From a virus (taxonomy: Duplodnaviria; Heunggongvirae; Uroviricota; Caudoviricetes), in IMG/VR virus record IMGVR_UViG_2703718840_000012: 14,266 nt of DNA, one strand, 5' to 3'. Within the stretch, counting starts at the first letter, position 1, and each line of letters opens with the position of its first letter. The notes under the pieces were generated by a model. It saw only the letters and a program-made list of their open reading frames with translations, was not told the DNA's origin and ran no database searches. This document shows positions 1 to 14,266 of this stretch, one piece after another. A program made the position numbers and the translations under genes.

Positions 1-93
1 GCGGAGTTATCCCGCGTAGAGATAGTCGAGCTGCTCAGTCAGGAGTCGGAAAAATTTCACAATATCGGATTGTCTCGCGGGGAGGTGCTTTGA
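1..93 (+). CDS. 3' end of an upstream phage early ORF (partial; 30 codons open from window edge to TGA at 91-93)
   Basis: Frame 1 is open from position 1 to a TGA at 91-93 that overlaps the next gene's ATG (93-95) by one base, as is typical of the packed P2 early operon. Not in the ORF track because it has no start codon in the window. Confidence 0.35.
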
Positions 94-392
94 TGTCCTG
101 TTCTCATTCAGTTGTATTACTGAATAACGCCTTAAAAATCGCCGTTATGAAAAATGGCGATTTGTCTCTTATTCAACTTTGTCTTGATAAAGAAAAACGC
201 GACATCACTGAATCTGTTATCGCGATTTATCAGAATGAATTAAACCTCCTGTCTGATGTGGTCAATTTACTTGTTAAACGCGCTGTATTCCACAAGCAAA
301 TTTCCTCAGTGGATGAACTGACAAAATTAACGACAGAACTTGCCAGTTATTGCGCTGATGTATCCAGGAAACTTAACGATAAAAGGAGCTGA
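93..392 (+). CDS. hypothetical phage early-operon protein
   Basis: ORF-track 90..392; the ATG at 93 is preceded by GGAGG (81-85) at 7-nt spacing, and the TTG at 90 is likely an artefact. Stop at 390-392 sits 2 nt before the next RBS/ATG. Position matches the small-ORF block between B and A in P2. Confidence 0.6.
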   Translation: MSCSHSVVLLNNALKIAVMKNGDLSLIQLCLDKEKRDITESVIAIYQNELNLLSDVVNLLVKRAVFHKQISSVDELTKLTTELASYCADVSRKLNDKRS

Positions 393-394
393 TA

Positions 395-619
395 ATGCCG
401 GATAACGTAGATTTTATTCAGGAACAACAGGCTGAATTACTGGAGCGCCAGATTAACGCGGCAAGGGTAAAACATTGCGGTGCTTCTGCGCTGGTTTGCG
501 AAGAGTGTGACGCGCCAATACCTGCTGCCCGTCGTGCGGCTTATCCGTCAGCCACGCGTTGTGTTTCCTGTCAGTCAGTCTTTGAAGCAAAAAACAAACA
601 TTACCGGAGAACGGCATGA
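395..619 (+). CDS. TraR/DksA-family C4-type zinc-finger protein
   Basis: Translation contains two CxxC pairs (CEEC ... CVSC) with the spacing of TraR/DksA C4 zinc fingers. AGGAG at 384-388 is 6 nt upstream of the ATG; the stop overlaps the next ATG (ATGA at 616-619). Confidence 0.8.
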   Translation: MPDNVDFIQEQQAELLERQINAARVKHCGASALVCEECDAPIPAARRAAYPSATRCVSCQSVFEAKNKHYRRTA

Positions 620-891
620 GTATTCGTATTGAAATTGGCGAACGTTATGTCGTTACCAGTGACAGCTTTCAGTTTATTCTCCACGAGAAAAAGAGAGCGG
701 AAAGCGGTAAAAACGCCGGTCAGGAATGGCTGTCGGTGGTTGGTTATTACCCGAAATTAAGCCAGCTCGTTTCCGGCCTGATGCATCACGATATTCTGAC
801 CGGAAGCGCAAAGTCTTTTGCTGATTTAAACGTGCAGGTTGAGCAACTCAGCAAGCGTTGTTCAGAGGCTTTTGGCTCATATGGCCGTTAA
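616..891 (+). CDS. hypothetical phage early-operon protein
   Basis: ATG at 616 with GGAGA at 604-608; the 3' end overlaps the gpA start at 881. Compact, overlapping organisation typical of a phage operon. Confidence 0.6.
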   Translation: MSIRIEIGERYVVTSDSFQFILHEKKRAESGKNAGQEWLSVVGYYPKLSQLVSGLMHHDILTGSAKSFADLNVQVEQLSKRCSEAFGSYGR

Positions 892-3157
892 AGCCTCCGG
901 GCGTTTTGTCCCTCCGTCAGCATTTGCCGCAGGCACCGGTAAGGCGTTTACCGGTGCTTATGCATGGAACGCGCCACGCGAGGCTGTCGGGCGCGAAAGA
1001 CCCCTTACACGTGACGAGATGCGTCAGGTGCAAGGTGTTTTATCCACGATTAACCGCCTGCCTTACTTTTTGCGCTCGCTGTTTACGTCACGCTATGACT
1101 ACATCCGGCGCAATAAAAGCCCGGTGCACGGGTTTTATTTTCTCACATCCACTTTTCAGCGTCGTTTATGGCCGCGCATTGAGCGTGTGAATCAGCGCCA
1201 TGAAATGAACACCGACGCGTCGTTGCTGTTTCTGGCAGAGCGTGACCATTATGCGCGTCTGCCGGGGATGAATGACAAGGAGCTGAAAAAGTTTGCCGCC
1301 CGTATCTCATCGCAGCTTTTCATGATGTATGAGGAACTCTGCGATGCCTGGGTGGATGCGCATGGCGAAAAAGAATCGCTGTTTACGGATGAGGCGCAGG
1401 CTCACCTCTATGGTCATGTTGCTGGTGCTGCACGTGCTTTCAATATTTCCCCGCTCTACTGGAAAAAATACCGTAAAGGGCAGATGACCAAGAGGCAGGC
1501 ATATTCTGCCATTGCCCGTCTGTTTAACGATGAGTGGTGGACCCATCAGCTTAAAGGCCAGCGTATGCGCTGGCATGAGGCGTTACTGATTGCTGTCGGG
1601 GAGGTCAATAAAGACCGTTCTCCTTATGCCAGTAAACATGCCATTCGTGATGTGCGTGCACGCCGCCAGGCAAATCTGGAATTTCTTAAATCGTGTGATC
1701 TCGAAAACAGGGAAACCGGCGAGCGCATCGACCTTATCAGTAAGGTGATGGGCAGTATTTCTAATCCTGAAATTCGCCGGATGGAGCTGATGAACACCAT
1801 TGCCGGTATTGAGCGTTACGCCGCAGCAGAGGGTGATGTGGGGATGTTTATCACGCTGACCGCGCCGTCAAAGTATCACCCGACACGTCAGGTCAGAAAA
1901 GGCGAAAGTAAAACCGTCCAGCTAAATCACGGCTGGAACGATGAGGCATTTAATCCAAAGGATGCGCAGCGTTATCTCTGCCGTATCTGGAGCCTGATGC
2001 GCACGGCATTCAAGGATAATGATTTACAGGTCTACGGTTTGCGTGTCGTCGAGCCACACCACGACGGAACGCCGCACTGGCATATGATGCTTTTTTGTAA
2101 TCCGCGCCAGCGTAACCAGATTATCGAAATCATGCGTCGCTATGCGCTCAAAGAGGATGGCGATGAAAGAGGAGCCGCGCGAAACCGTTTTCAGGCAAAA
2201 CACCTTAACCGGGGCGGTGCTGCGGGGTATATCGCGAAATACATCTCAAAAAACATCGACGGCTATGCACTGGATGGTCAGCTCGATAACGATACCGGCA
2301 GGCCGCTGAAAGACACTGCTGCGGCTGTTACCGCATGGGCGTCAACGTGGCGCATCCCGCAATTTAAAACGGTTGGTCTGCCAACAATGGGGGCTTACCG
2401 TGAACTACGCAAATTGCCGCGCGGCGTCAGCATTGCTGATGAGTTTGACGAGCGCGTCGAGGCTGCACGCGCCGCCGCAGACAGTGGTGATTTTGCGTTG
2501 TATATCAGCGCGCAGGGTGGGGCAAATGTCCCGCGCGATTGTCAGACTGTCAGAGTCGCCCGTAGCCCGTCGGATGACGTTAACGAGTACGAGGAAGAGG
2601 TCGAGAGGGTGGTCGGCATTTACGCGCCGCATCTCGGCGCGCGTCATATTCATATCACCAGAACGACGGACTGGCGCATTGTGCCGAAAGTTCCGGTCGT
2701 TGAGCCTTTGACTTTAAAAAGCGGCATCGCCGCGCCTCGGAGTCCTGTCAATAACTGTGGAAAGCTCACCGGTGGTGATACTTCGTTACCGGCTCCCACA
2801 CCTTCTGAGCACGCCGCAGCAGTGCTTAATCTGGTAGATGACGGTGTTATCGAATGGAATGACCAGGAGGTCGTGAGGGCGCTCAGAGGTGCATTAAAAC
2901 ACGGTCTGAGAAGACCAAACCGTCAGCAAAGAAACGGAAGCCCGTTAAAACCGCATGAAATAGCGCCATCGGCCAGACTGACCCGGTCGGAACGAATGCA
3001 AATTACCCGTATCCGCGTTGACCTTGCTCAGAACGGTATCAGGCCACAGCGATGGGAGCTTGAGGCGCTGGCGCGTGGCGCGACCGTAAATTATGACGGG
3101 GAAAAATTCACGTATCCGGTCGCTGATGAGTGGCCGGGATTCTCAACAAACATATAA
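881..3157 (+). CDS. A: P2-type replication initiation endonuclease gpA (rolling-circle initiator)
   Basis: ORF-track 839..3157 starts at a TTG; the ATG at 881 gives MAVKASGRFVPPSAFAAGTGK..., which I recognise as the P2 gpA N-terminus. Length (~758 aa) fits gpA and it contains the HWHMMLF block. Recognition is from memory, not a search. Confidence 0.9.
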   Translation: MAVKASGRFVPPSAFAAGTGKAFTGAYAWNAPREAVGRERPLTRDEMRQVQGVLSTINRLPYFLRSLFTSRYDYIRRNKSPVHGFYFLTSTFQRRLWPRIERVNQRHEMNTDASLLFLAERDHYARLPGMNDKELKKFAARISSQLFMMYEELCDAWVDAHGEKESLFTDEAQAHLYGHVAGAARAFNISPLYWKKYRKGQMTKRQAYSAIARLFNDEWWTHQLKGQRMRWHEALLIAVGEVNKDRSPYASKHAIRDVRARRQANLEFLKSCDLENRETGERIDLISKVMGSISNPEIRRMELMNTIAGIERYAAAEGDVGMFITLTAPSKYHPTRQVRKGESKTVQLNHGWNDEAFNPKDAQRYLCRIWSLMRTAFKDNDLQVYGLRVVEPHHDGTPHWHMMLFCNPRQRNQIIEIMRRYALKEDGDERGAARNRFQAKHLNRGGAAGYIAKYISKNIDGYALDGQLDNDTGRPLKDTAAAVTAWASTWRIPQFKTVGLPTMGAYRELRKLPRGVSIADEFDERVEAARAAADSGDFALYISAQGGANVPRDCQTVRVARSPSDDVNEYEEEVERVVGIYAPHLGARHIHITRTTDWRIVPKVPVVEPLTLKSGIAAPRSPVNNCGKLTGGDTSLPAPTPSEHAAAVLNLVDDGVIEWNDQEVVRALRGALKHGLRRPNRQQRNGSPLKPHEIAPSARLTRSERMQITRIRVDLAQNGIRPQRWELEALARGATVNYDGEKFTYPVADEWPGFSTNI

Positions 3158-3218
3158 AAATGATTGAAATGGTTGATTTTGCTTCCACTTGATGGTTGGT
3201 ATCAGCAACTGATGGATC

Positions 3219-3479
3219 ATGCGGAACTGCGTGGCGATCTTGCTTTGGAAGCATGTCATTATGACTAATGCATACATTACTAGCTATGCGTCCGGTTCCG
3301 CCATTGTACTCGTGCAAGAGTCTGCGGCTGATGGCTATTGTTTACAAATTATGGTCAAAGAGAATCTGACCCTCTACGAGTTGGTCGGAGGGACTGAGAT
3401 CGTCAGTGATAACTGCAGCCGTATGGGAGAAATCAATAATCCCAACCGTCCATATTTCTACCTTCACGCGTGCCCATAA
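3219..3479 (+). CDS. hypothetical small protein downstream of A (orf91-like position); start may be ATG 3261
   Basis: ORF-track ORF; no strong RBS at either candidate start. Composition is intermediate between the backbone and the AT-rich cargo. Confidence 0.3.
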   Translation: MRNCVAILLWKHVIMTNAYITSYASGSAIVLVQESAADGYCLQIMVKENLTLYELVGGTEIVSDNCSRMGEINNPNRPYFYLHACP

Positions 3480-3644
3480 TCTGTCACCACGTTGACCATA
3501 GAAAACCCCGTCGACGCTGAAACTCGCTTTCAGTGCTGGCGGGGGTGAACAACGAGCTTGCGAGGCGTTAGGGATGTCGAAATTTCATATGACTGTTCGC
3601 TTTAATGCTTAACGAAGTCATGTTGAGTTAATAACATTTTTTCG

Positions 3645-5189
3645 TTAAGCGCTGTGTTCCTTGTCGAATAAGTTCACTTCTTCTGGTGTAATATCATTAT
3701 CCATTTCTTCGAATGCATCTAAATCCACAATTTTTGTTTTTTTCAAAATTGATAGTATTTTCTGTTTGTTTTTACTTTTGGCTGAACCCGGAATCCACTC
3801 TACATCCCACAGGCCATCAATGGTAAATGTTTTTTTTCCCTTGAGTTCATCATTTATGCGTTGACATAGGGCTGTTTTGTAATCGCCTTCCCATTGTGTG
3901 TGTATCTTCCCTTGAACTCGTTGAAACCAAATATCTAACATTTCAGTATTTGGTTGTTTACCTAGTTTACAATGAAGTTGTTGTAACTTGCCAAATTTGA
4001 GTTCATCGTCGTCATAAAGGAAGGTCAAGAGTTTTGCGAAAATAGCCATTCCCACTGGGTAGGTGGTTGGGTTTTTAGCCATGATGCTTGAAATAATTCC
4101 AAGCATTGCATCTAGTTGATGCCCACTATTTGTGATCTTTTTCTTCCTAAATAATTTTCGCAAGAAATCATTTAAATATCTAACTGTAATTTTGGAGTTT
4201 TGATGTTTTAAAGAAAATAAATATATTGCATACAACATTTTCTGTAGGGAGTTGAACGACTTTTCTATAATATATTCTTTTTTTGCTGATTTAAGGGAGT
4301 GAAGAATGATGTCGTCATGTAGTTCTGTTTTTCTTGAGTTTAAATCAAGCCCAAACTCACCTAAGACCTCAACCAAACACTTTGAGATTTTGTCCAAATC
4401 ATCTTTACTGCTTGAAAATATTCGATAATCATCTCTGTAGCGAACTACTTTGTAATCCGTTATTTTTTGCTCTTCAGTTTTTTTTCTTAGCTGTAAATCA
4501 ATTTCGCCTAAAATTAATTCGGCAAATGTATCCATCAACGTACTACCCAATGGTATTCCGTTTGTCTGATTACTCATCATCATCTGGATATGAGTGTCAA
4601 TCAATCGTCCTGGGTTATTGTTATTTTCTTTCTTTTTGGCCTCTTCTTTTGAGATGAATACCCATTCAAAGCTATGAGTGTAAATAGAAGGGTAGAAGTT
4701 TGAAATATCTGTGCTGAACATGAACTCATACTCAAGAGCCAATGAAAGACTTTTTTGTTCAAAATCTTCCCACCAGTTTAAAACAGATGCAGCTACGTTT
4801 GAGGTGTTCTTTTTGCTCACTGGGGTACTTGAGCATAAAAAAAGATCATTAGACTCAAACTCTCTAAATTTATTCTTTATAGCCTTCCAGTTGGAAGGGG
4901 ATGTAATAAGTTTACAAAAATACACGTAGTATAGAGGATTAATTAGTGTTATTCGTCGCCAGCTATATAAGCCATCTTTGCTGACTAAAACCTCGTAATT
5001 TATATTCTTCCCCATCAATGACTTGGAGTCAGGTTGGAAGTTGATTTTACCTTCATCTATCGCGGAGTTGATTTCTTCAAGCAAGGAAGAAAAATCGACA
5101 TAACTGGGTAGCTCCAGAGTAGTGTATGAATCATGCTGCAGAAAATACTTAAGCGCTCTACCAGTAGTTAATTCATAAATCTTTTTCAT
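3645..5189 (-). CDS. reverse transcriptase, Abi/UG-like single-gene type with ~220-aa C-terminal extension
   Basis: Translation shows RT motifs in order: SWRRITLINP (motif 2), FSTDISNFYPSI (motif A, catalytic D), NGIPLGSTLMDTFAELIL (motif B), VVRYRDDYRIF (YxDD motif C), GLDLNSRKT (motif D/E). ATG at 5189 (MKKIYELT...) is preferred; the ORF-track start at 5315 is a TTG and the extension reads as Cys/His-rich junk running into the cos flank. Same position and orientation as old in P2. Confidence 0.8.
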   Translation of the reverse strand: MKKIYELTTGRALKYFLQHDSYTTLELPSYVDFSSLLEEINSAIDEGKINFQPDSKSLMGKNINYEVLVSKDGLYSWRRITLINPLYYVYFCKLITSPSNWKAIKNKFREFESNDLFLCSSTPVSKKNTSNVAASVLNWWEDFEQKSLSLALEYEFMFSTDISNFYPSIYTHSFEWVFISKEEAKKKENNNNPGRLIDTHIQMMMSNQTNGIPLGSTLMDTFAELILGEIDLQLRKKTEEQKITDYKVVRYRDDYRIFSSSKDDLDKISKCLVEVLGEFGLDLNSRKTELHDDIILHSLKSAKKEYIIEKSFNSLQKMLYAIYLFSLKHQNSKITVRYLNDFLRKLFRKKKITNSGHQLDAMLGIISSIMAKNPTTYPVGMAIFAKLLTFLYDDDELKFGKLQQLHCKLGKQPNTEMLDIWFQRVQGKIHTQWEGDYKTALCQRINDELKGKKTFTIDGLWDVEWIPGSAKSKNKQKILSILKKTKIVDLDAFEEMDNDITPEEVNLFDKEHSA

Positions 5190-5395
5190 AATTAGTGATT
5201 TCTTCTTAAGTTGCGCACAAATAACTACCTGTTTTCTATCATGATAACGATGCGAATGCGAGCAATTCAGGAAGTGCATTACTCTGCATCGAAGCGCACG
5301 CAAGTCAGAGAACAATAACTGCCTGGCGACATCAGGACTGGCGCGCTAGTTGAGTGGTCATGCAACTGCATTAAAACCGCCCCATGAAGCGGGCG

Positions 5396-5414
5396 GGCGA
5401 GGCGGGGAAAGCAC
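5396..5414. other. P2-type cos site (19-nt cohesive-end sequence GGCGAGGCGGGGAAAGCAC)
   Basis: Exact 19-nt string ggcgaggcggggaaagcac inside a GC-rich island between the two AT-rich RT genes. It matches the P2/186 cohesive-end sequence as I recall it, and sits where cos is expected, between the old-slot gene and Q. Confidence 0.65.
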
Positions 5415-5452
5415 TGCGCGCTAAACGATGTCGCTGGCTTGCAGTTACCCGG

Positions 5453-5481
5453 TTGAAATTCTTATTTTTTTGTTGCATTAT
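5453..5481 (+). promoter_or_regulatory. candidate sigma70 promoter for the RT2 leader/operon (TTGAAA-17 nt-CATTAT)
   Basis: -35 ttgaaa at 5453-5458, 17-nt spacer, -10 cattat at 5476-5481, immediately right of cos and about 250 nt upstream of the RT2 start. Sequence-only call. Confidence 0.25.
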
Positions 5482-5527
5482 TCTTAGCGCACCAGCGATT
5501 CGCTTGGTATGCGGCAGTCAACAACAT

Positions 5528-5722
5528 TAAATTGTCAGTTTTTGCTTTTACAAAAAAGCGTCCACTATGGACCTATCAGCGAGGCCCCACCGTCGTCAAC
5601 TACGATGGTGCCGTAGCCGACGACATTACGTACGGTCGAAAGATAGCAGAGGCTGTTGCTGACAATTGTTGATGTAAGCATCTCTGCTGTTCCACCCTTG
5701 AGTATGGGAAGACCGTACGTAA
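5528..5722 (+). ncRNA. candidate structured leader / retron-like ncRNA (msr-msd-like) upstream of RT2
   Basis: Nested and crossing inverted repeats: 9-bp aattgtcag (5530-5538) vs ctgacaatt (5659-5667), extendable to ~14 bp with a bulge; a two-tier hairpin at 5591-5622; a perfect 12-bp repeat ttacgtacggtc (5626-5637) vs gaccgtacgtaa (5711-5722) ending 18 nt before the RT2 ATG. Architecture is ncRNA -> RT -> effector as in retrons. Boundaries are approximate. Confidence 0.3.
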
Positions 5723-5739
5723 CTTTGAATTTGAATGGT

Positions 5740-6930
5740 ATGTTTATGGATAAATTTAAACCATACAGCAAATCCAATGCTCCTATCACAACACTTGAAA
5801 AGTTGTCAAAGGCTTTATCGATTTCTGTTGAAGAGCTTAAAGCTATTGCAGAATTACCATTAGATGAGAAATATACTCTAAAAGAAATTCCCAAAATTGA
5901 CGGAAGCAAACGGATTGTCTACTCCCTGCATCCTAAAATGAGATTATTACAGAGTAGAATTAATAAACGTATCTTTAAGGAATTGGTTGTTTTTCCTTCA
6001 TTTTTGTTTGGTTCAGTTCCCAGTAAAAATGATGTTTTAAATTCTAATGTCAAACGTGACTATGTTTCATGTGCAAAGGCTCATTGTGGAGCAAAAACAG
6101 TTCTCAAGGTGGATATAAGTAATTTTTTCGATAATATCCATAGAGATCTGGTTAGGAGCGTGTTTGAGGAGATATTGCATATTAAGGATGAGGCTCTTGA
6201 ATACTTGGTGGAAATATGTACTAAGGATGATTTTGTCGTACAGGGGGCCTTAACATCAAGCTATATAGCAACTTTGTGTTTATTCGCTGTTGAAGGGGAT
6301 GTGGTAAGACGTGCGCAGAGGAAAGGACTTGTTTATACGCGTTTGGTAGATGATATTACCGTGTCATCTAAAATAAGTAATTATGATTTTTCTCAAATGC
6401 AAAGCCATATAGAGAGGATGCTTTCTGAGCATGACTTGCCGATAAATAAGCGCAAAACTAAAATATTTCACTGTTCATCTGAACCTATAAAAGTACATGG
6501 TTTAAGAGTTGACTATGACTCACCTCGACTACCATCCGATGAAGTCAAAAGAATCAGGGCATCTATACATAATTTGAAATTACTGGCGGCAAAAAATAAC
6601 ACAAAAACAAGTGTTGCATACAGAAAAGAATTCAATAGATGTATGGGGAGAGTGAATAAGCTTGGCCGTGTTGCGCATGAAAAATATGAATCATTCAAGA
6701 AACAGTTGCAGGCAATAAAACCGATGCCATCTAAAAGAGATGTTGCTGTGATTGATGCAGCTATAAAAAGTTTAGAGTTGTCGTATTCGAAAGGTAATCA
6801 AAATAAACATTGGTATAAAAGAAAATATGATTTGACGAGATATAAGATGATTATTCTTACTCGCTCTGAATCATTTAAAGAAAAACTGGAGTGTTTTAAA
6901 TCTAGATTGGCATCTTTAAAACCATTATGA
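5740..6930 (+). CDS. retron-type reverse transcriptase (divergent catalytic motifs)
   Basis: Translation shows YTLKEIPKIDGSKRIVYSLHP (motifs 1-2), HCGAKTVLKVDISNFFDNI (motif A), VVQGALTSSYIATL (motif B), YTRLVDDI (motif C, both Asp present), INKRKTKI, then VHGLRVDY...VKRIRASIHNL, resembling the retron RT VTG/thumb region. Start is ambiguous among ATG 5704, 5740 and 5746, none with a strong SD; the ORF-track start 5656 is a TTG. Confidence 0.85.
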   Translation: MFMDKFKPYSKSNAPITTLEKLSKALSISVEELKAIAELPLDEKYTLKEIPKIDGSKRIVYSLHPKMRLLQSRINKRIFKELVVFPSFLFGSVPSKNDVLNSNVKRDYVSCAKAHCGAKTVLKVDISNFFDNIHRDLVRSVFEEILHIKDEALEYLVEICTKDDFVVQGALTSSYIATLCLFAVEGDVVRRAQRKGLVYTRLVDDITVSSKISNYDFSQMQSHIERMLSEHDLPINKRKTKIFHCSSEPIKVHGLRVDYDSPRLPSDEVKRIRASIHNLKLLAAKNNTKTSVAYRKEFNRCMGRVNKLGRVAHEKYESFKKQLQAIKPMPSKRDVAVIDAAIKSLELSYSKGNQNKHWYKRKYDLTRYKMIILTRSESFKEKLECFKSRLASLKPL

Positions 6931-7634
6931 ATGCAAATATTAGACTTCTCAAATATATTGTCGGTGTGTCGTCAGCTCTTTTTTTGATTTTTTCGCTAAT
7001 TTCTCTTTTTGAAACTATTCAGAATGAAAAGCTATATGAGCGTGATATATGCTTCGATAGCCAGTGCTTAAAATTTTTTGCGGAAAAAACATCTGGTATA
7101 GTAATGTATTTTCAGGCGTTTGGATGGCTTATAACAACTTTTGTTACCGTTTTTGGTGTTATGATTGCTTTGATGACATATAACGCTGGAGTTAAAAATA
7201 ATAATAATAGTAATTACACTAGTCATCTGACGATGTTTAGAGAATTTGCAAGTGCTGAGTTAACTAAAAGAAGTAGCATCTATCCAGAGAAAGTTAATTT
7301 TTTTAGATGGTATAGGGTTATGTTCCCTGAAGCGCAAGGCGGTGATATATCTGTTTCGAGAGATTATCTAGAAATAATATCTAGAATCAAATGTGTTATT
7401 GAGGAAGCCAATGCACATATTACAGAGGAAAATAAAGACTATAAATATAAAACTCATCAGAGAAAAATGATGGCTGTTTTGGATGAAATCGGTATATCGA
7501 TTAGTAATGGGCCCAAAAATATTTTTATTGAGGTTGAGAGTCAAATTTTGGATTATATCGATACTATTAATTTGTCATTTTGTCACTCCTCATCAGTGAT
7601 AGAATTAAGTAGAGTAAAAAGGAAGTATATATAG
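6927..7634 (+). CDS. two-transmembrane-helix membrane protein with ~150-aa soluble C-terminal domain; candidate effector of the RT2 module
   Basis: ATG overlaps the RT2 stop (ATGA at 6927-6930), indicating translational coupling. Two hydrophobic stretches (YIVGVSSALFLIFSLISLF and IVMYFQAFGWLITTFVTVFGVMIALMTY) near the N-terminus; same AT-rich composition as RT2. Confidence 0.8.
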   Translation: MNANIRLLKYIVGVSSALFLIFSLISLFETIQNEKLYERDICFDSQCLKFFAEKTSGIVMYFQAFGWLITTFVTVFGVMIALMTYNAGVKNNNNSNYTSHLTMFREFASAELTKRSSIYPEKVNFFRWYRVMFPEAQGGDISVSRDYLEIISRIKCVIEEANAHITEENKDYKYKTHQRKMMAVLDEIGISISNGPKNIFIEVESQILDYIDTINLSFCHSSSVIELSRVKRKYI

Positions 7635-7636
7635 TT

Positions 7637-7672
7637 AAGTTGGCGGGATTGCATTCCGCCAACTTTATATAT
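7637..7672. terminator. GC-rich hairpin with T-rich tail between the cargo operon and the 3' end of Q; candidate bidirectional terminator
   Basis: aagttggcgg (7637-7646) pairs with ccgccaactt (7656-7665) around a 9-nt loop, followed by tttatatattt. Lies 3 nt after the 2TM stop and 5 nt before the Q stop on the other strand. Confidence 0.45.
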
Positions 7673-7676
7673 TTAC

Positions 7677-8696
7677 TTATAAGTTATAATCAAGGAATTT
7701 TATGACTTCCATATCTAACCATTCATTTATTGACTTTATTCTCTCCTGTAATGGAATGAGTTCATTGCGGACAAAGACCTTTGCCACTTTTTCAATATCT
7801 CCTAGTGACCCGACATTCTCCGGCTTACCGCCCATCAACTGAAAGGGGATGCGGTGTGCGTCCAGGAGATCTGCGGCGCTGACTTTTTTGATATTAAAAA
7901 AATCGTCCTTCGTCGCCACTTCACTGAGGGGGATAATTTTAATGCCGTCGGCTTTCCCCTGTGGGGCATAGAGAAACAGGTTTTTAAAGTTGTTGCGGCC
8001 TTTTGACTTAACCATGTTTTCGCGAAGCATTTCGATATCGTTGCGGTCCTGCACGGCATCGGTGACGTACATGATGTATCCGGCATGAGCGCCGTTTTCG
8101 TAATACTTGCGGCGGAACAGCGTGGCCGACTCATTCAGCCAGGCAGAGTTAAGGGCGCTGAGATATTCCGGCAGGCCGTACAGCTCCTGATTAATATCAG
8201 GCTCCAGCAGGTGAAACACGGAGCCGGGCGCGAAGGCTGTCGGCTCGTTGAAGGACGGCACCCACCAGTAAACATCCTCCTCCACGCCACGACGGGTATA
8301 TTTGGCCGGTGAGGTTTCCAGTCTGATGACCTTACCGGTGGTGCTGTAACGCTTTTCCAGAAACGCATTACCGAACACCAGAAAATCCAGCACAAAGCGG
8401 CTGAAATCCTGCTGGGACAGCCACGGGTGCGGGATAAACGTTGAAGCCAGAATATTGCGTTTAACGTAAATCGGTGAGCTGTGATGCACGGCAGCACGCA
8501 GGCTTTTTGCCAGACCGGTAAAGCTGACCGGTGGCTCATACCATCTGCCGTTACTGATGCACTCGACGTAATCCAGAATATCACGGCGGTCGAGTACCGG
8601 CACCGGCTCACCAAAGGTGAATGCCTCCATTTTCGGGGCGCTGGCAGTCATTGTTTTCACCGCTGGCTGCGGTGTTTTCCCTTTTTTCTTACTCAT
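7677..8696 (-). CDS. Q: P2-type capsid portal protein gpQ
   Basis: 339-aa ORF (P2 gpQ is similar in size), GGAG RBS 9 nt upstream, ATG overlapping the stop of the upstream terminase ORF (ATGA at 8693-8696), cos-proximal and on the leftward strand as in P2. Confidence 0.88.
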   Translation of the reverse strand: MSKKKGKTPQPAVKTMTASAPKMEAFTFGEPVPVLDRRDILDYVECISNGRWYEPPVSFTGLAKSLRAAVHHSSPIYVKRNILASTFIPHPWLSQQDFSRFVLDFLVFGNAFLEKRYSTTGKVIRLETSPAKYTRRGVEEDVYWWVPSFNEPTAFAPGSVFHLLEPDINQELYGLPEYLSALNSAWLNESATLFRRKYYENGAHAGYIMYVTDAVQDRNDIEMLRENMVKSKGRNNFKNLFLYAPQGKADGIKIIPLSEVATKDDFFNIKKVSAADLLDAHRIPFQLMGGKPENVGSLGDIEKVAKVFVRNELIPLQERIKSINEWLDMEVIKFLDYNL

Positions 8697-9607
8697 CAGT
8701 AAAACTCCAGAATGGTGGATGTCAGCGGGGTGCTGATACCGGCGGTGAGTGGCTCATTTAACAGGGCGTGCATGGTCGCCCAGGCGAGATCGGCGTGGCT
8801 GGCTTCCTCGCTGCGGCTGGCCTCATAGGTGGCGCTGCGTCCGCTGCTGGTCATGGTCTTGCGGATAGCCATAAACGAGCTGGTGATGTCGGTGGCGCTG
8901 ACGTCATATTCCAGACAGCCACGGCGGATAACGTCTTTTGCCTTGAGCACCATTGCGGTTTTCATTTCCGGCGTGTAGCGGATATCGCGCGCGGCGGGAT
9001 AGAACGAGCGCACGAGCTGGAACACGCCGACACCGAGGCCGGTGGCATCAATCCCGATGTATTCAACGTTATATTTTTCGGTGAGTTTGCGGATGGATTC
9101 CGCCTGGGTGGCAAAGTCCATGCCTTTCCACTGGTGACGCTCAAGTATTCTGAATTTGCCACCGGCCACCACCGGCGGTGCCAGTACCACGCATCCGGCG
9201 CTGTCGCCACGGTGTGACGGGTCGTAACCAATCCATACCGGGCGGGAGCCGAACGGATTTGCGGCAAACGGCGCATAGTCTTCCCATTCTTCCAGCGTGT
9301 CGACCATGCAACGTTGCAGCTCCTCGAACGGGAACACCGACGCCTTGTCGTCAACAAATTCACACATGAACAGGTTTTTAAAATCGTCGGCGCTGTTTTC
9401 ACGTTTGAGCTGCTCAATGTCGAACAGTGTGCAGCCACCTTTCAGGGCGTCCTCAATGGTGACAATCTGCCGCCACTGGCCGTCCGCACAGAGAAGCCCA
9501 CCGGCAAGGGCGTTATGACTGACGTCGATTTCCACGCGTTCGGCGGCGCTGGCGCGTCCCCGGTTGAACAGTTCACCCGACCAGAACGGGTACCCTGGAT
9601 AATCCGG
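8696..9607 (-). pseudogene. P: terminase ATPase/nuclease subunit gpP, C-terminal ~300 aa only (5' half deleted)
   Basis: Reading frame is continuous with the Q overlap and is open upstream of the GTG at 9535 back to a TAA at 9608-9610, with no plausible start or N-terminal ATPase region. About 300 aa are present against the ~590 expected for gpP. Confidence 0.8.
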
Positions 9608-9846
9608 TTAAACGTGGTGAACAGGTTATCGAACAGGTCACGCTGATGAAACCCAATGCCGGGACGCTGCGCGGTGTCAGTCTGGCTGCGGTCGCAAACT
9701 CCGAAGTCGATGCACTGATTAAAGTGCTGCCGCGCATGACGGCACCGATGCTGACCGAGCAGGAGGTCGCCGCGCTGGAACTGCCTGACCTTGTGGCGCT
9801 GGCCGGTAAGGTGGTCGGTTTTTTGTCGCCGAACTCGGTGCAGTGA
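9568..9846 (+). pseudogene. E: tail assembly chaperone gpE, 5'-truncated at the deletion junction (first ATG at 9646)
   Basis: Frame open from 9568. Ends ...GKVVGFLSPNSVQ with the heptamer T TTT TTG (9819-9825) in the correct phase for the -1 shift that makes E+E' in P2-like phages. Abuts the P fragment on the opposite strand. Confidence 0.6.
9819..9825 (+). other. programmed -1 ribosomal frameshift slippery heptamer (T_TTT_TTG) of the E/E' pair
   Basis: X_XXY_YYZ pattern in phase with the E frame (codons GGT TTT TTG); the -1 frame stays open for ~55 codons to a TGA at 9990-9992. Confidence 0.55.
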
Positions 9847-9898
9847 CGTTTCCGAAAAATCTCTCGGTCGATGACCTGATGGCGGATGTGGCAGTGAT

Positions 9899-10675
9899 AT
9901 TTCACTGGCCGCCATCACCGGCATCAATGCCATCATCGCGGCAGCAGGCGCAATGGGGGCAATCTTCACGACGGTTGGCAGTGCTGTTATGACCGCCATC
10001 GGAGCGATTAGCTGGCCGGTTGTGGCCGTGGTGGCCGCCATTGTCGCCGGGGCGTTGCTTATCCGTAAATACTGGGAGCCTGTCAGCGCATTCTTTGGCG
10101 GTGTGGTGGAAGGGCTGAAAGCGGCATTTGCGCCGGTGGGGGAACTGTTCACGCCACTTAAGCCGGTGTTTGACTGGCTGGGCGAAAAGTTACAGGCCGC
10201 GTGGCAGTGGTTTAAAAACCTGATTGCCCCGGTTAAAGCCACCCAGGACACCCTGAACCGTTGCCGTGACACGGGCGTCATGTTCGGGCAGGCACTGGCT
10301 GACGCGTTGATGCTGCCGCTTAATGCGTTCAACAAACTGCGCAGTGGTATTGACTGGGTACTGGAAAAACTCGGTGTTATCAACAAAGAGTCAGACACAC
10401 TTGACCAGACCGCCGCCAGAACTCATGCCGCCACGTATGGCACCGGTGGTTATATTCCGGCGACCAGCTCTTATGCAGGCTATCAGGCTTATCAGCCGGT
10501 TACGGCACCGGCTGGCCGCTCTTATGTGGACCAGAGTAAAAACGAATATCACATCAGTCTGACGGGCGGTACTGCGCCGGGGACTCAGCTCGACCGCCAG
10601 TTACAGGATGCGCTCGAAAAATATGAGCGGGATAAACGTGCGCGCGCCCGTGCCAGCATGATGCATGACGGTTAA
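9899..10675 (+). pseudogene. T: tail tape measure protein gpT, C-terminal ~240-260 aa only
   Basis: Frame open from 9899, first ATG at 9953, stop at 10673-10675 directly before the U RBS. Hydrophobic segment plus a C-terminal ...ERDKRARARASMMHDG tail typical of P2-like tape measures; far shorter than the ~800 aa expected. Confidence 0.75.
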
Positions 10676-10689
10676 GGAGGTGACGAAAA

Positions 10690-11169
10690 ATGATGCTCGC
10701 GTTAGGTATGTTTGTTTTTATGCGCCAGACGCTGCCACACCAGACCATGCAGCGTGAATCAGATTATCGCTGGCCGTCAAATTCCCGTATCGGTAAACGG
10801 GATGCCTTTCAGTTTCTCGGTGTGGGTGAGGAAAACATTACGCTTGCCGGCGTGCTTTATCCCGAACTGACCGGCGGCAAGCTGACGATGACCACGCTCA
10901 GACTGATGGCAGAGGAAGGCCGGGCGTGGCCGTTGCTGGATGGCACCGGCATGATTTACGGCATGTATGTCATCAGCAGGGTGAATGAAACAGGGAGTAT
11001 TTTCTTTGCAGACGGCACACCCCGGAAAATTGATTTTACGCTGTCGCTCACCCGCGTTGATGAATCACTGGCCGCGCTTTATGGCGATATCGGTAAACAG
11101 GCGGAATCGCTCATCGGTAAGGCTGGCAGTATGGCGACTAAATTCACGGGTATGACGGGGGCGGGATAA
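10690..11169 (+). CDS. U: P2-type tail protein gpU
   Basis: 159-aa ORF beginning MMLALGMFVFMRQTLPHQ..., AAGGAGG RBS at 10673-10679; stop overlaps the D start by one base (TAATG). Confidence 0.9.
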   Translation: MMLALGMFVFMRQTLPHQTMQRESDYRWPSNSRIGKRDAFQFLGVGEENITLAGVLYPELTGGKLTMTTLRLMAEEGRAWPLLDGTGMIYGMYVISRVNETGSIFFADGTPRKIDFTLSLTRVDESLAALYGDIGKQAESLIGKAGSMATKFTGMTGAG

Positions 11170-12332
11170 TGCTGGATGCGCTGACATTTGATGCAGGCAG
11201 TACGCTGACGCCGGATTACATGCTGATGCTCGACAGCAGGGATATTACCGGCAATATCAGCGACCGTCTGATGAGCATGACCCTGACGGATAACCGGGGC
11301 TTTGAGGCTGACCAGCTTGATATTGAACTGAACGATGCCGACGGGCAGGTCGGGCTGCCGGTTCGTGGCGCTGTCCTGACGGTGTATATCGGCTGGAAAG
11401 GTTTTGCCCTGGTATGCAAAGGGAAATTCACCGTTGATGAGGTTGAACACCGGGGCGCGCCGGATGTGGTTACCATCCGCGCCCGGAGTGCAGATTTTCG
11501 CGGGACGCTCAATTCCCGCCGTGAAGGCTCATGGCATGACACCACGCTCGGTGCGATTGTTGAGGCGATAGCCTCCCGTAACAAGCTGGAAGCCAGTGTC
11601 GCGCCGTCACTGGACGGAATTAAAATCCCGCACATCGACCAGTCGCAGGAGTCTGATGCGAAATTCCTGACCCGCCTTGCTGAACGCAACGGCGGTGAGG
11701 TGTCGGTAAAAATGGGAAAACTGTTGTTTCTCAAAGCGGGGCAGGGGGTGACTGCCAGCGGTAAAAAAATCCCGCAGATTACCATCACCCGCAGCGACGG
11801 TGACCGTCATCATTTTGCGATTGCTGACCGTGGAGCTTACACCGGCGTAACGGCAAAGTGGTTACACACCAAAGACCCGAAGCCGCAAAAGCAGAAGGTA
11901 AAACTGAAACGCAAAAAGAAAGAAAAACACCTGCGCGCACTGGAGCACCCGAAAGCGAAACCGGTCACGCAGAAGAAAGCGCCAAAAGTACCGGAAGCGC
12001 GCGAAGGTGAATACATGGCCGGTGAAGCTGACAACGTTTTTGCCCTGACCACGGTATATGCCACAAAAGCGCAGGCTATGCGCGCCGCTCAGGCGAAGTG
12101 GGACAAACTGCAACGGGGCGTTGCGGAGTTCTCCATCAGCCTGGCTACCGGTCGGGCAGATATTTACACGGAAACACCGGTCAAAGTGTCAGGCTTTAAG
12201 CGCGTCATAGACGAGCAGGACTGGACAATCACTAAGGTGACACATTTTCTGAATAATAGCGGCTTCACGACGTCCTTGGAGCTTGAGGTCAGGCTTTCTG
12301 ATGTGGAGTACGAAACAGAAGATGATGAGTGA
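11169..12332 (+). CDS. D: P2-type tail protein gpD
   Basis: 387-aa ORF in the U-D-ogr order with a lysine-rich KPQKQKVKLKRKKKEK segment; recognised as the gpD family (yegZ in E. coli K-12 is a fragment of this gene). Confidence 0.9.
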   Translation: MLDALTFDAGSTLTPDYMLMLDSRDITGNISDRLMSMTLTDNRGFEADQLDIELNDADGQVGLPVRGAVLTVYIGWKGFALVCKGKFTVDEVEHRGAPDVVTIRARSADFRGTLNSRREGSWHDTTLGAIVEAIASRNKLEASVAPSLDGIKIPHIDQSQESDAKFLTRLAERNGGEVSVKMGKLLFLKAGQGVTASGKKIPQITITRSDGDRHHFAIADRGAYTGVTAKWLHTKDPKPQKQKVKLKRKKKEKHLRALEHPKAKPVTQKKAPKVPEAREGEYMAGEADNVFALTTVYATKAQAMRAAQAKWDKLQRGVAEFSISLATGRADIYTETPVKVSGFKRVIDEQDWTITKVTHFLNNSGFTTSLELEVRLSDVEYETEDDE

Positions 12333-12350
12333 TGTTTTTATTTTATCTGT

Positions 12351-12379
12351 TTGTTTTATAAGGATAAATTAACTAAAAT
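12351..12379 (+). promoter_or_regulatory. candidate ogr promoter (TTGTTT-17 nt-TAAAAT)
   Basis: -35 ttgttt 12351-12356, 17-nt spacer, -10 taaaat 12374-12379, about 35 nt upstream of the ogr ATG, in an AT-rich gap after D. Confidence 0.3.
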
Positions 12380-12413
12380 GGCACCATCAACAAAATCGGA
12401 AGAGGTGCTCGCG

Positions 12414-12632
12414 ATGTTTCATTGTCCTTTATGCCAGCATGCCGCACATGCGCGTACAAGCCGCTATATCACTGACACGACAAAAGAGCGTTATCACCAG
12501 TGTCAGAACGTGAATTGCAGCGCCACGTTTATCACTTATGAGTCGGTACAGCGATACATCGTGAAGCCGGGAGAAGTCCACGCCGTAAGACCGCACCCGT
12601 TGCCGTCAGGGCAGCAAATTATGTGGATGTAA
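12414..12632 (+). CDS. ogr: Ogr late-gene transcription activator (C4 zinc finger)
   Basis: 72-aa product MFHCPLCQHAAHARTSRYITDTTKERYHQCQNVNCSATF... with CxxC-N22-CxxxxC cysteines, recognised as P2 Ogr (ogrK in K-12). ORF-track start 12351 is a TTG; the ATG at 12414 has a GGAAGAGGTG RBS. Confidence 0.9.
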   Translation: MFHCPLCQHAAHARTSRYITDTTKERYHQCQNVNCSATFITYESVQRYIVKPGEVHAVRPHPLPSGQQIMWM

Positions 12633-12644
12633 TTACAAACAGGA

Positions 12645-12670
12645 AGCCCCTCAGTCGAGGGGCTTTTTTG
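12645..12670 (+). terminator. rho-independent terminator downstream of ogr
   Basis: Perfect 9-bp stem aagcccctc / gaggggctt with 5-nt loop agtcg, followed by TTTTTT (12665-12670). Confidence 0.75.
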
Positions 12671-12733
12671 TCGATGTGGTCAATGTGTGGACGTGACCAG
12701 AAATAAATCCTTTTATTTCATTGTATTACGCGT

Positions 12734-12760
12734 AAAAAATAAGCCCGTGTAAGGGAGATT
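12734..12760. other. P2 attachment-site core (attR), 27 bp AAAAAATAAGCCCGTGTAAGGGAGATT
   Basis: Exact 27-nt string at 12734-12760, about 100 nt after ogr and 145 nt before host yegQ, matching the P2 att core as I recall it. The phage-host junction is therefore here. Confidence 0.65.
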
Positions 12761-12904: not shown

Positions 12905-14266
12905 TCACTTACCGTGTGGGTTACGCGTGGTTTCCCCGGAGAAATTACGCATCAGCAGAGCGTAATTGAGCTCAAGATCCTGCGGGACCGGGAGCCACAC
13001 AGTATAACCATCGCCTGGTGCGACCGGCATCGCTTCACCTATGGCGTTTTCCATGTGCTCAAGGGTAAAGTTAATGTTGCCTTGCGGCGTCATCAGCTCA
13101 AGGCTGTCGCCAACGGAGAATTTATTTTTCACCGCTACCGCCGCGAGGTCCCCCTTGCGCTCACCGGTAAACTCACCAACAAACTGCTGGCGGTCAGAAA
13201 CTGAATAACCGTATTCGTAGTTCTGATAATCGTCGTGAGTATGACGACGCAGGAAACCTTCGGTATAGCCACGATGCGCCAGACCTTCCAGAGTTTCCAG
13301 CAGGCTGGTATCGAACGGTTTGCCCGCAGCGGCGTCATCGATAGCTTTACGGTAAACCTGTGCGGTGCGTGCGCAATAGTAGAAAGATTTAGTACGGCCT
13401 TCGATTTTCAGCGAATGCACGCCCATTTTGGTCAGGCGTTCTACATGGGCGATGGCGCGCAGATCTTTCGAGTTCATGATGTAAGTGCCGTGCTCATCTT
13501 CAAACGCGGTCATATACTCGCCCGGACGCTGGGCTTCTTCGATCATAAACACTTTGTCGGTTGGCGCGCCGATACCCAGCGTCGGCTCAACATTTTGCAC
13601 CGGAATCGGCTCGTACTTGTGTACGATGTTGCCAACGTCATCTTCTTTCCCTTCCTGGACGTTGTACTCCCAGCGGCAGGCGTTGGTGCAGGTACCCTGG
13701 TTCGGATCGCGCTTGTTGATATAGCCAGAGAGCAGGCAGCGACCGGAGTAGGCCATGCACAGTGCGCCGTGAACGAAGATCTCGATCTCCATATCCGGCA
13801 CCTGATTGCGGATCTCTTCAATCTCTTCCAGCGACAGCTCGCGAGAGAGGATCACGCGGGTCAGGCCCATTTGCTGCCAGAATTTCACCGTCGCCCAGTT
13901 TACGGCGTTAGCCTGCACCGAGAGGTGGATCGGCATTTCAGGGAAGTGCTCACGCACCAGCATAATCAGCCCTGGATCGGACATAATCAGCGCATCCGGC
14001 CCCATTTCCACCACCGGTTTCAGGTCACGGATAAAGGTTTTCAGCTTGGCGTTGTGCGGTGCAATGTTGACCACGACATAAAACTTTTTCCCCAGCGCGT
14101 GGGCTTCATTGATGCCGAGCTGAAGATTTTCGTGGTTGAATTCGTTGTTGCGCACACGCAGGGAGTAACGCGGCTGGCCCGCATAAACAGCATCTGCGCC
14201 ATAAGCGAAAGCGTAACGCATATTTTTCAGCGTTCCCGCCGGGGAAAGGAGTTCCGGTTTAAACAT
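12905..14266 (-). CDS. yegQ: host peptidase U32-family protein YegQ (TrhP, tRNA hydroxylation)
   Basis: 453-aa ORF MFKPELLSPAGTLKNMRYAFAYGADAVYAG... recognised as E. coli YegQ. The ATG is the last triplet of the window (14264-14266 on the minus strand), so the CDS is complete but its promoter is outside. Confidence 0.92.
   Translation of the reverse strand: MFKPELLSPAGTLKNMRYAFAYGADAVYAGQPRYSLRVRNNEFNHENLQLGINEAHALGKKFYVVVNIAPHNAKLKTFIRDLKPVVEMGPDALIMSDPGLIMLVREHFPEMPIHLSVQANAVNWATVKFWQQMGLTRVILSRELSLEEIEEIRNQVPDMEIEIFVHGALCMAYSGRCLLSGYINKRDPNQGTCTNACRWEYNVQEGKEDDVGNIVHKYEPIPVQNVEPTLGIGAPTDKVFMIEEAQRPGEYMTAFEDEHGTYIMNSKDLRAIAHVERLTKMGVHSLKIEGRTKSFYYCARTAQVYRKAIDDAAAGKPFDTSLLETLEGLAHRGYTEGFLRRHTHDDYQNYEYGYSVSDRQQFVGEFTGERKGDLAAVAVKNKFSVGDSLELMTPQGNINFTLEHMENAIGEAMPVAPGDGYTVWLPVPQDLELNYALLMRNFSGETTRNPHGK

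Follow-up and report, generated by a model that had tools for sequence, protein, structure and literature searches.

The window analysed here, i.e. the whole stretch of 14,266 nt taken from the IMG/VR virus record IMGVR_UViG_2703718840_000012, was mapped by BLAST against phage P2. It holds part of a prophage integrated at the P2 locI site (yegR/trhP): positions 1–3148 correspond to P2 27154–30301 (part of orf80, then orf81, orf82, orf83 and A) and positions 7738–9592 to P2 263–2117 (Q and the 3' half of P). Between these two lie a stretch of foreign low-GC DNA (3149–5366), the cos site (5367–5422) and a further stretch of foreign low-GC DNA (5423–7737). From left to right, the features are:

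881–3157, plus strand: replication initiator gene A, an intact ORF of 758 aa, in gapless collinearity with P2 27154–30301 (97%) and with phage pro147 (99%)
3645–5189, minus strand: Abi-P2-type reverse transcriptase-like defence gene on the A side, 514 aa (PADLOC AbiP2, 531.7 bits, full length)
5361–5421, plus strand: conserved cos core, made up of a 35-bp left flank, the 19-nt cohesive end and a 7-bp right flank
5396–5414, plus strand: 19-nt cohesive end, the same as P2 cosL/cosR and the end of P4
5453–5745, plus strand: promoter-like site of the retron (5453–5481) and probable msr-msd non-coding RNA region
5746–6930, plus strand: retron reverse transcriptase (RT) of type IV (Ec48 family), in the Q-side cargo (PADLOC RT_IV, 584.8 bits; also the PGAP name in relatives)
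6927–7634, plus strand: two-transmembrane effector of the retron Ec48 family (NCBIfam retron_Ec48_2TM, 226.7 bits for a cut-off of 65; PADLOC 2TM_IV, 282.9 bits)
7637–7665: terminator-like hairpin with a 13-bp stem, between the convergent retron effector gene and Q
7677–8696, minus strand: portal gene Q, intact, 339 aa, 96% identical to P2 gpQ over 339 aa (TIGR01540, 252.6 bits)
8696–9592, minus strand: large terminase gene P, truncated, with its C-terminal 298 codons left; P2 homology stops at P2 2117
9591–9592: deletion junction 1, where P2 2117 is joined to P2 19452 at a TA microhomology
9593–9917, plus strand: fragment of tail genes E/E' (window 9591–9917 vs. P2 19450–19776, 97.6%)
9905–9917: deletion junction 2, inside the tape-measure gene T, at an imperfect 13-nt repeat
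9918–12632, plus strand: C-terminal fragment of T (to 10675), U (10690–11169), D (11169–12332) and ogr (12414–12632)
12734–12760, plus strand: attR, a complete 27-nt P2 att core matching the P2 attP core exactly, with host DNA from 12761
12905–14266, minus strand: host gene trhP (yegQ), annotated at the same locus in relatives

At the right-hand end of the prophage, positions 9905–12760 are 96.8% identical to P2 21526–24382, and U, D and ogr are intact, with the same ORF lengths as in P2. The ori nick region is found inside A, at about 2709–2769, and the window agrees with P2 over the 61 bp that surround the nick. As a whole, A, ori, cos, Q, U, D, ogr and attR are retained, and int, C, cox and attL lie beyond the window. 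Since gene order and orientation are those of P2 at locI (A, accessory locus, cos, Q, P), the cos site stands in its native position and orientation; this order also rules out a cos that had been displaced or embedded through rearrangement.

The 19-nt sequence GGCGAGGCGGGGAAAGCAC, on the plus strand at 5396–5414, is the only match to the cohesive end in the window, even when up to 3 mismatches are tolerated, and none of 200 dinucleotide-preserving shuffles contained it. It is identical to the annotated cosL (1–19) and cosR (33575–33593) of P2 (AF063097) and to bases 1–19 of P4 (NC_001609), while the cohesive end of 186 differs from it at 2 positions. The cohesive-end sequence that the earlier note had placed at these positions was therefore correct.

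The circular cos junctions of P2, P4 and 186 were rebuilt and aligned to window 5286–5524, the earlier note having proposed such an alignment for 5316–5470. The block common to the four sequences covers about 5361–5421 and consists of TGCAACTGCATTAAAACCGCCCCATGAAGCGGGCG, then GGCGAGGCGGGGAAAGCAC, then TGCGCGC. The 55-bp block shared by P2 and P4 (5367–5421) is complete in the window and corresponds to the '55-bp cos' that PMC9594776 credits to Ziermann and Calendar 1990, as far as the citing text describes it. Across these 55 bp, the window differs from P2 only at 5384 (A in the window, G in P2), within a stretch (5384–5386) that varies among P2, P4 and 186 themselves. The flanks expected to be recognised by terminase are thus undisrupted, which the earlier note had made a condition for packaging by a helper.

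A larger reference set of 118 cos regions (112 distinct), gathered from IMG/VR using the 19-mer as a pattern, was also examined. Compared with the 112 distinct P2/P4-type regions, the window carries the majority base at 61 of the 61 positions of 5361–5421. Conservation across this core is mostly 85–100%, the polymorphic positions being 5365, 5380, 5384–5386, 5395, 5400 and 5414. Beyond 5423, on the right, most P2-like genomes have additional backbone sequence in common, which is absent from both the window and P4. As for base composition, GC content is 0.66 in the cos core, 0.55–0.58 in the roughly 30–45 bp on each side and 0.35 in the cargo on both sides, vs. 0.52–0.55 for the P2 backbone.

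Several minor features were seen around the core. On the minus strand, the left flank (5377–5396) reads CCGCCC-N8-GGGCGG followed by TTTTAAT, and scores as intrinsic-terminator-like for leftward transcription coming from the Q side. A conserved CCGCCC/GGGCGG hairpin was considered here and rejected: the variable positions 5380 and 5395 lack covariation among the 112 regions, so the pairing is unsupported and no structural claim is made. An 11-nt inverted repeat, CTGGCGCGCTA at 5338–5348 and TAGCGCACCAG at 5485–5495 (10/11 complementary, 136 nt apart), brackets the core and may be due to chance. Some 332 nt upstream of its RT start, a relative with the same island, IMGVR_UViG_648276644_000011, carries GGCGAGGCGGGGGAAGCAC, a variant cos in which the 13th base of the cohesive end is G instead of A; the Abi-P2 gene of this relative is split, and a decaying copy or a sequencing error are both possible.

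Concerning the DNA on either side of cos, the shared GC content of 0.35 against the backbone values marks the AT-rich 'island' as two cassettes, one per cos flank. The succession of GC-rich flanks and AT-rich cargo pointed out in the earlier note is confirmed, and holds on both sides; its picture of a cos preserved inside a cargo island has to be replaced by that of a cos in native position with a separate cassette on each flank. On the A side, the Abi-P2 gene occupies the position of old/tin in P2 and is 100% identical, over 182 nt, to a 'putative reverse transcriptase' fragment of P2-EC58; Abi-P2 proteins have been described for P2-EC30 and P2-EC58 (PMC9508834).

The Q-side cassette, in which a retron-clade RT is followed by its cognate two-transmembrane effector, is a type IV (Ec48) retron. 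To the right of cos, promoter-like hexamers (TTGAAA-17-CATTAT) are found at 5453–5481. The block of about 290 nt upstream of the RT, which is kept in retron relatives with 74–77% RT identity, probably holds the msr-msd RNA, to judge from its sequence: the candidate region has a fold z of −3.9, and a perfect 12-nt inverted repeat (5626–5637/5711–5722), with arms just 73 nt apart, is a candidate for a1/a2. An Rfam search of 3000–8000 for retron or other RNAs gave 0 matches, even at E ≤ 1. ORF32 as annotated in pro147 (window 5565–5681, minus strand) probably overlies the retron RNA.

Insertion of the retron replaced the P2 terminator tQ, P2 homology resuming only at 7738 (P2 263), and the last 20 or so codons of Q are recoded, giving 339 aa vs. 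344 in P2. The place of tQ is taken by the new hairpin at 7637–7665. In 7 of the 10 IMG/VR loci with the same retron, the distance from cos to the RT start downstream is exactly 332 nt, which is also that of the window. The distance between cos and Q is 176–195 bp (about 188) in 79 of 93 P2-like IMG/VR loci and exceeds 390 bp in the other 14, making cargo on the Q side a recurrent minority arrangement; in the window this distance is 2263 bp.

With low-GC cassettes carrying AbiP2, RT_IV and 2TM_IV between A and Q and adjoining cos, the region is the already described gpA–gpQ cos-proximal defence hotspot of P2-like phages (Rousset et al. 2022, PMC9122126; 2026 follow-up, PMC13586616). The hotspot and the window have in common AT-rich defence cassettes next to cos and, for Abi-P2, the old/tin position. 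The window is distinguished by the occupation of both cos flanks, only 14 of the 93 sampled loci having more than 390 bp between cos and Q. Defective P2-like elements keeping near-identical defence genes have also been described for this hotspot (PMC9122126; PMC13586616).

A retron next to cos has a precedent: according to Dodd and Egan 1996, as cited in PMC6868368, retrons Ec67 and Ec86 replace the DNA between cos and a terminator in a 186-related prophage. As far as this citation goes, the two cases share a retron that directly adjoins cos, on the side of the portal gene, in a prophage of the P2/186 family; the window differs by its retron type (type IV, Ec48 family, with a 2TM effector) and by a replaced segment that also takes in tQ and recodes the last 20 or so codons of Q. 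The cos sites of P2, P4 and 186, credited to Ziermann and Calendar 1990 and Wang et al. 1973 in the citing papers (PMC9594776, PMC9122126), are placed and oriented with respect to Q and A as in the window, and the 19-nt end is identical in P2 and P4. To the right of the core, P2 has its cos–Q spacer, whereas the window has retron DNA.

The prophage is defective. Junction 1, whose placement is uncertain by ±2 nt because of the TA microhomology, removes P2 2118–19451 (±2 nt), from inside P into E, with the loss of O, N, M, L, X, Y, K, lysABC, R, S, orf30, V, W, J, I, H, G, fun(Z), FI and FII, as well as the N-terminal 292 codons of P and the first 7 or so codons of E at its ends. Junction 2 removes P2 19777–21525, i.e. 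1.75 kb and two thirds of T. The capsid, small terminase, lysis, baseplate, fibre, sheath and tube genes are therefore gone, and the window lacks the complete late-gene set of an intact P2-like prophage. The earlier statement that the structural genes have disappeared is correct for most of them, as judged by BLAST against P2, but not for Q, U and D, which are intact. The element is thus a decaying, defective P2-like prophage at locI. The exact junction of the window was found in none of the other public collections searched (complete E. coli genomes, GTDB representative genomes and JGI metagenomes).

A functioning relative is phage pro147 (KR073660), which has the same arrangement of backbone, Abi-P2, cos and retron and is 99.0% identical, without gaps, to window 1–9592. 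Only 9 substitutions separate the two over 3149–7737 (4589 bp). Over 5300–5500 there is a single substitution; it falls at 5364, a position at which the window follows the family consensus, and 5365–5500 is identical. For pro147, induction with mitomycin C, plaque formation and observation under the electron microscope have been reported (PMC5285337). It is complete, with 32.7 kb, and differs in this from the window element, from which the two deleted segments are missing. Since pro147 functions with the same cos and retron flank, such a cos apparently supports packaging in a functioning phage.

Further independent deletion derivatives of P2-like prophages were found in E. coli: AF44 (deleted from O to FI), EN-1077 (P to ogr), isolateD (M to FII) and ET791, a rearranged Q/T/E/D remnant. 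The hotspot has been kept in all four, together with int, C, cox, B and A. In the three of them that carry the same island, the cos region is identical to that of the window over 5300–5500. The EN-1077 remnant, with 12.2 kb, is near P4 in genome size.

Two other systems can be compared with this element. The cryptic E. coli K-12 remnant PR-X (ogrK-yegZ) occupies the same integration site and keeps ogr and the end of D, but it measures only 641 bp (P2 23742–24382) and has no cos, vs. about 12.7 kb including cos in the window. The satellites P4 and phiR73, like the window element, are small, lack capsid genes, carry an activator of the Ogr/Delta family and have a P2-type cos beside a defence cassette (a retron in phiR73). 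As in a satellite, virion genes are missing, though Q, U and D remain, and the packaging signal of a helper is present. However, the window has no alpha gene and no P4-type integrase, and none of the sid-, psu- or epsilon-like genes that mark helper exploitation by a satellite was found in its ORF map. It is plainly a deleted P2 with leftover late-gene fragments, and its size fits neither of the two capsids.

Taken together, the cohesive end, the roughly 55-bp P2/P4 block, and the location and orientation relative to A and Q are those of a P2-type cos. The string is very probably the genuine, intact cos of a P2-like (Peduovirus) prophage, at its native place, and its sequence makes it, with the same high probability, intrinsically functional. 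The site itself is ordinary, and the gpA–gpQ layout has already been well described.

By homology with P2, terminase would nick the two strands in staggered fashion, the top one before 5396 and the bottom one after 5414. The enzyme of a complete relative (gpM plus gpP) would recognise the core of about 55–60 bp, and these nicks would yield 19-nt cohesive ends, so that in the virion the genome would begin on the left with the retron cassette and end on the right with the Abi-P2 gene. Cargo on the Q side at the extreme left end of a packaged genome is what the earlier note had predicted, and is the arrangement of pro147. In the window, two illegitimate deletions have eliminated terminase in both its functions, along with the genes for capsid, lysis, baseplate, fibre, sheath and tube and the greater part of the tape-measure gene. 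In this history, the perfection of cos would be most simply passive, the deletions lying to the right of cos and the two intact defence cassettes around it. Identity of about 99% to a living phage leaves too little time for an unselected cos to decay, and its 'preserved' state is therefore uninformative about selection. For annotation, the site fixes the genome ends of the would-be virion, splits the 'island' into two cassettes and places the whole in a decaying prophage at locI.

A P2-type terminase acting in trans would be expected to cut and package this cos, provided that the element is excised as a circle. P2 terminase prefers monomeric circles, and so the element must be excised first. 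Packaging by a helper, as suggested in the earlier note, is a reasonable inference and appears mechanistically possible; it also depends on int, cox, attL, circular excision, heteroimmunity of the helper and tolerance of a genome of about 15.5 kb. This size is an estimate, obtained by adding 2805 bp upstream (as in EN-1077) to 12733 bp, and represents 46% of P2 and 134% of P4, a dimer reaching about 93% of P2. The cargo is compatible with P2-type lytic growth because pro147 carries the same cargo.

A step further would be to see in it a functioning, adapted helper-dependent element, or proto-satellite, whose cos is kept by selection: with int, cox, A, ori and cos retained, it would be excised and replicated during the growth of a heteroimmune P2-like phage, packaged via cos, and would spread Abi-P2 and the retron. 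We consider this unlikely, even though a number of observations are in line with it. The cos, A and the ori nick region are intact, same-locus relatives retain int, C, cox and B, and at least 15 other deletion derivatives retain the early region, the hotspot and cos. The cargo is tolerated in lytic growth (pro147), and the dimer would come close to P2 length. Transduction of cos-bearing plasmids has been described with P2 or P2/P4 as helpers (PMC9594776; PMC2231350), P2 accepting a cos of P2 or of P4 (PMC9594776), and P4 cosmids of 4.7–8.7 kb are packaged despite underfilled P4 capsids (PMC2231350). On the other hand, three P4 genomes enter P2-sized capsids at low efficiency only (PMC6893505).

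Adaptation to a capsid is not apparent from remnant sizes either, which run from about 9.4 through 11.6, 12.2, 15.5 (window) and 16.7 to about 20 kb with no clustering at capsid capacities. Moreover, a P2 prophage is non-inducible, and its excision depends on Cox. The useless fragments P', E' and T' have been kept, genes for capsid size or helper control are absent except for ogr, the exact junction is missing from the other collections searched, and the K-12 end-state remnant at the same locus has lost cos. As for the cos shared by the relatives, these were found by homology to the retained part, which makes their common retention of cos a matter of ascertainment and not evidence of selection. 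If cos-positive remnants were shown to be mobilised by helpers, defence systems could spread by this route, and such remnants would plausibly mark the initial stage in the passage from phage to satellite.

A second alternative, which we hold to be very improbable, accepts the intact core but supposes a poor or dead packaging signal, P2 28–262 on its right having been replaced by the retron. It builds on the points that also count against the preferred reading of an intact, functional cos: from 5424 the right flank departs from the sequence usual in P2-like genomes, and longer cos flanks raised transduction efficiency in one cosmid study (PMC9594776). Against this, P4 also diverges from P2 just past the core, the only part that they have in common, yet it is packaged by P2 terminase; pro147 forms plaques with the same right flank; and extra DNA between cos and Q is found in 14 of 93 P2-like loci. 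Finally, a chance or unrelated GC-rich string is refuted by the shuffles and by 61 bp of family consensus in the correct place and orientation of a P2-like genome.

The most interesting thing near this cos is the recurrence of the breakpoint in P. The ORF that remains of P, which encodes 279 aa (8696–9535, minus strand), was looked up in public assemblies and returned many defective P2-like prophages with various attachment sites (cpxP/fieF, pflB, yegQ), integrases and hotspot cargo. When these prophages are taken together with four metagenome contigs and a contig from IMG/VR, the left breakpoint, which falls directly after ...CCAGAACGGGTA (P2 AF063097 2117, window 9592), is identical to the nucleotide in eleven distinct junction types. 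Its right partners are P2 2653, about 10284, 14346, 18406, 19405, 19452 (the window), 21297, 21684, 21983, 23193 and 23745. The two bases before the right breakpoint, readable in nine junction types, are TA in six, CA in two and TT in one. The whole set also contains two exceptions, namely a deletion ending at 2104 (with a 7-nt microhomology) and a prophage with a simple +1 frameshift. Ascertainment by this ORF tolerates endpoints over at least 57 bp and thus does not account for the precision of the breakpoint. Truncations of P are rare: among the 1645 E. coli records with a P match, the best match covers less than 80% in 47.

Several explanations for P2 2117 were tried and rejected. As a cryptic cos it is unremarkable, 194–1688 other P2 positions (depending on the motif window) matching or beating its ungapped similarity to the cos core. 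As a cryptic gpA (ori) nick site, its best nearby similarity ranks 61st or worse genome-wide. A mosaic boundary is not indicated, diverged P genes being uniformly 65–85% identical on either side. Local DNA structure is not unusual, with two small hairpins flanking A2117 and a fold z of −0.36, and no reciprocal junctions with the right side fixed were found in IMG/VR. Candidate causes are site-specific nicking, or protection of a DNA end, at TA 2116–2117.

It is conceivable, though rather doubtful, that cos-retaining P2 derivatives are made recurrently, a site-specific break after ...CCAGAACGGGTA stripping the late genes to its right, and that the resulting derivatives, keeping int, early genes, hotspot, cos and Q, persist and spread as helper-packaged carriers of defence; this doubt bears on the two steps jointly. 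Within such a scheme, the recurrence of the breakpoint is itself observed. Should cos-positive remnants prove to be mobilised by helpers, the precise and recurrent breakpoint in P would point to a specific process by which remnants are made.

Reuse was also seen on the right-hand side. The endpoint at P2 23745 occurs in three other prophages with differing left partners and in the K-12 remnant PR-X. In K-12 MG1655, this remnant (2167183–2167820, ogrK-yegZ) starts at P2 23742–23745, joined to a truncated att core (...CCCGTGTA/GCAGAG, with the slash at the junction), and P2 23742–23745 looks like a second reused breakpoint.
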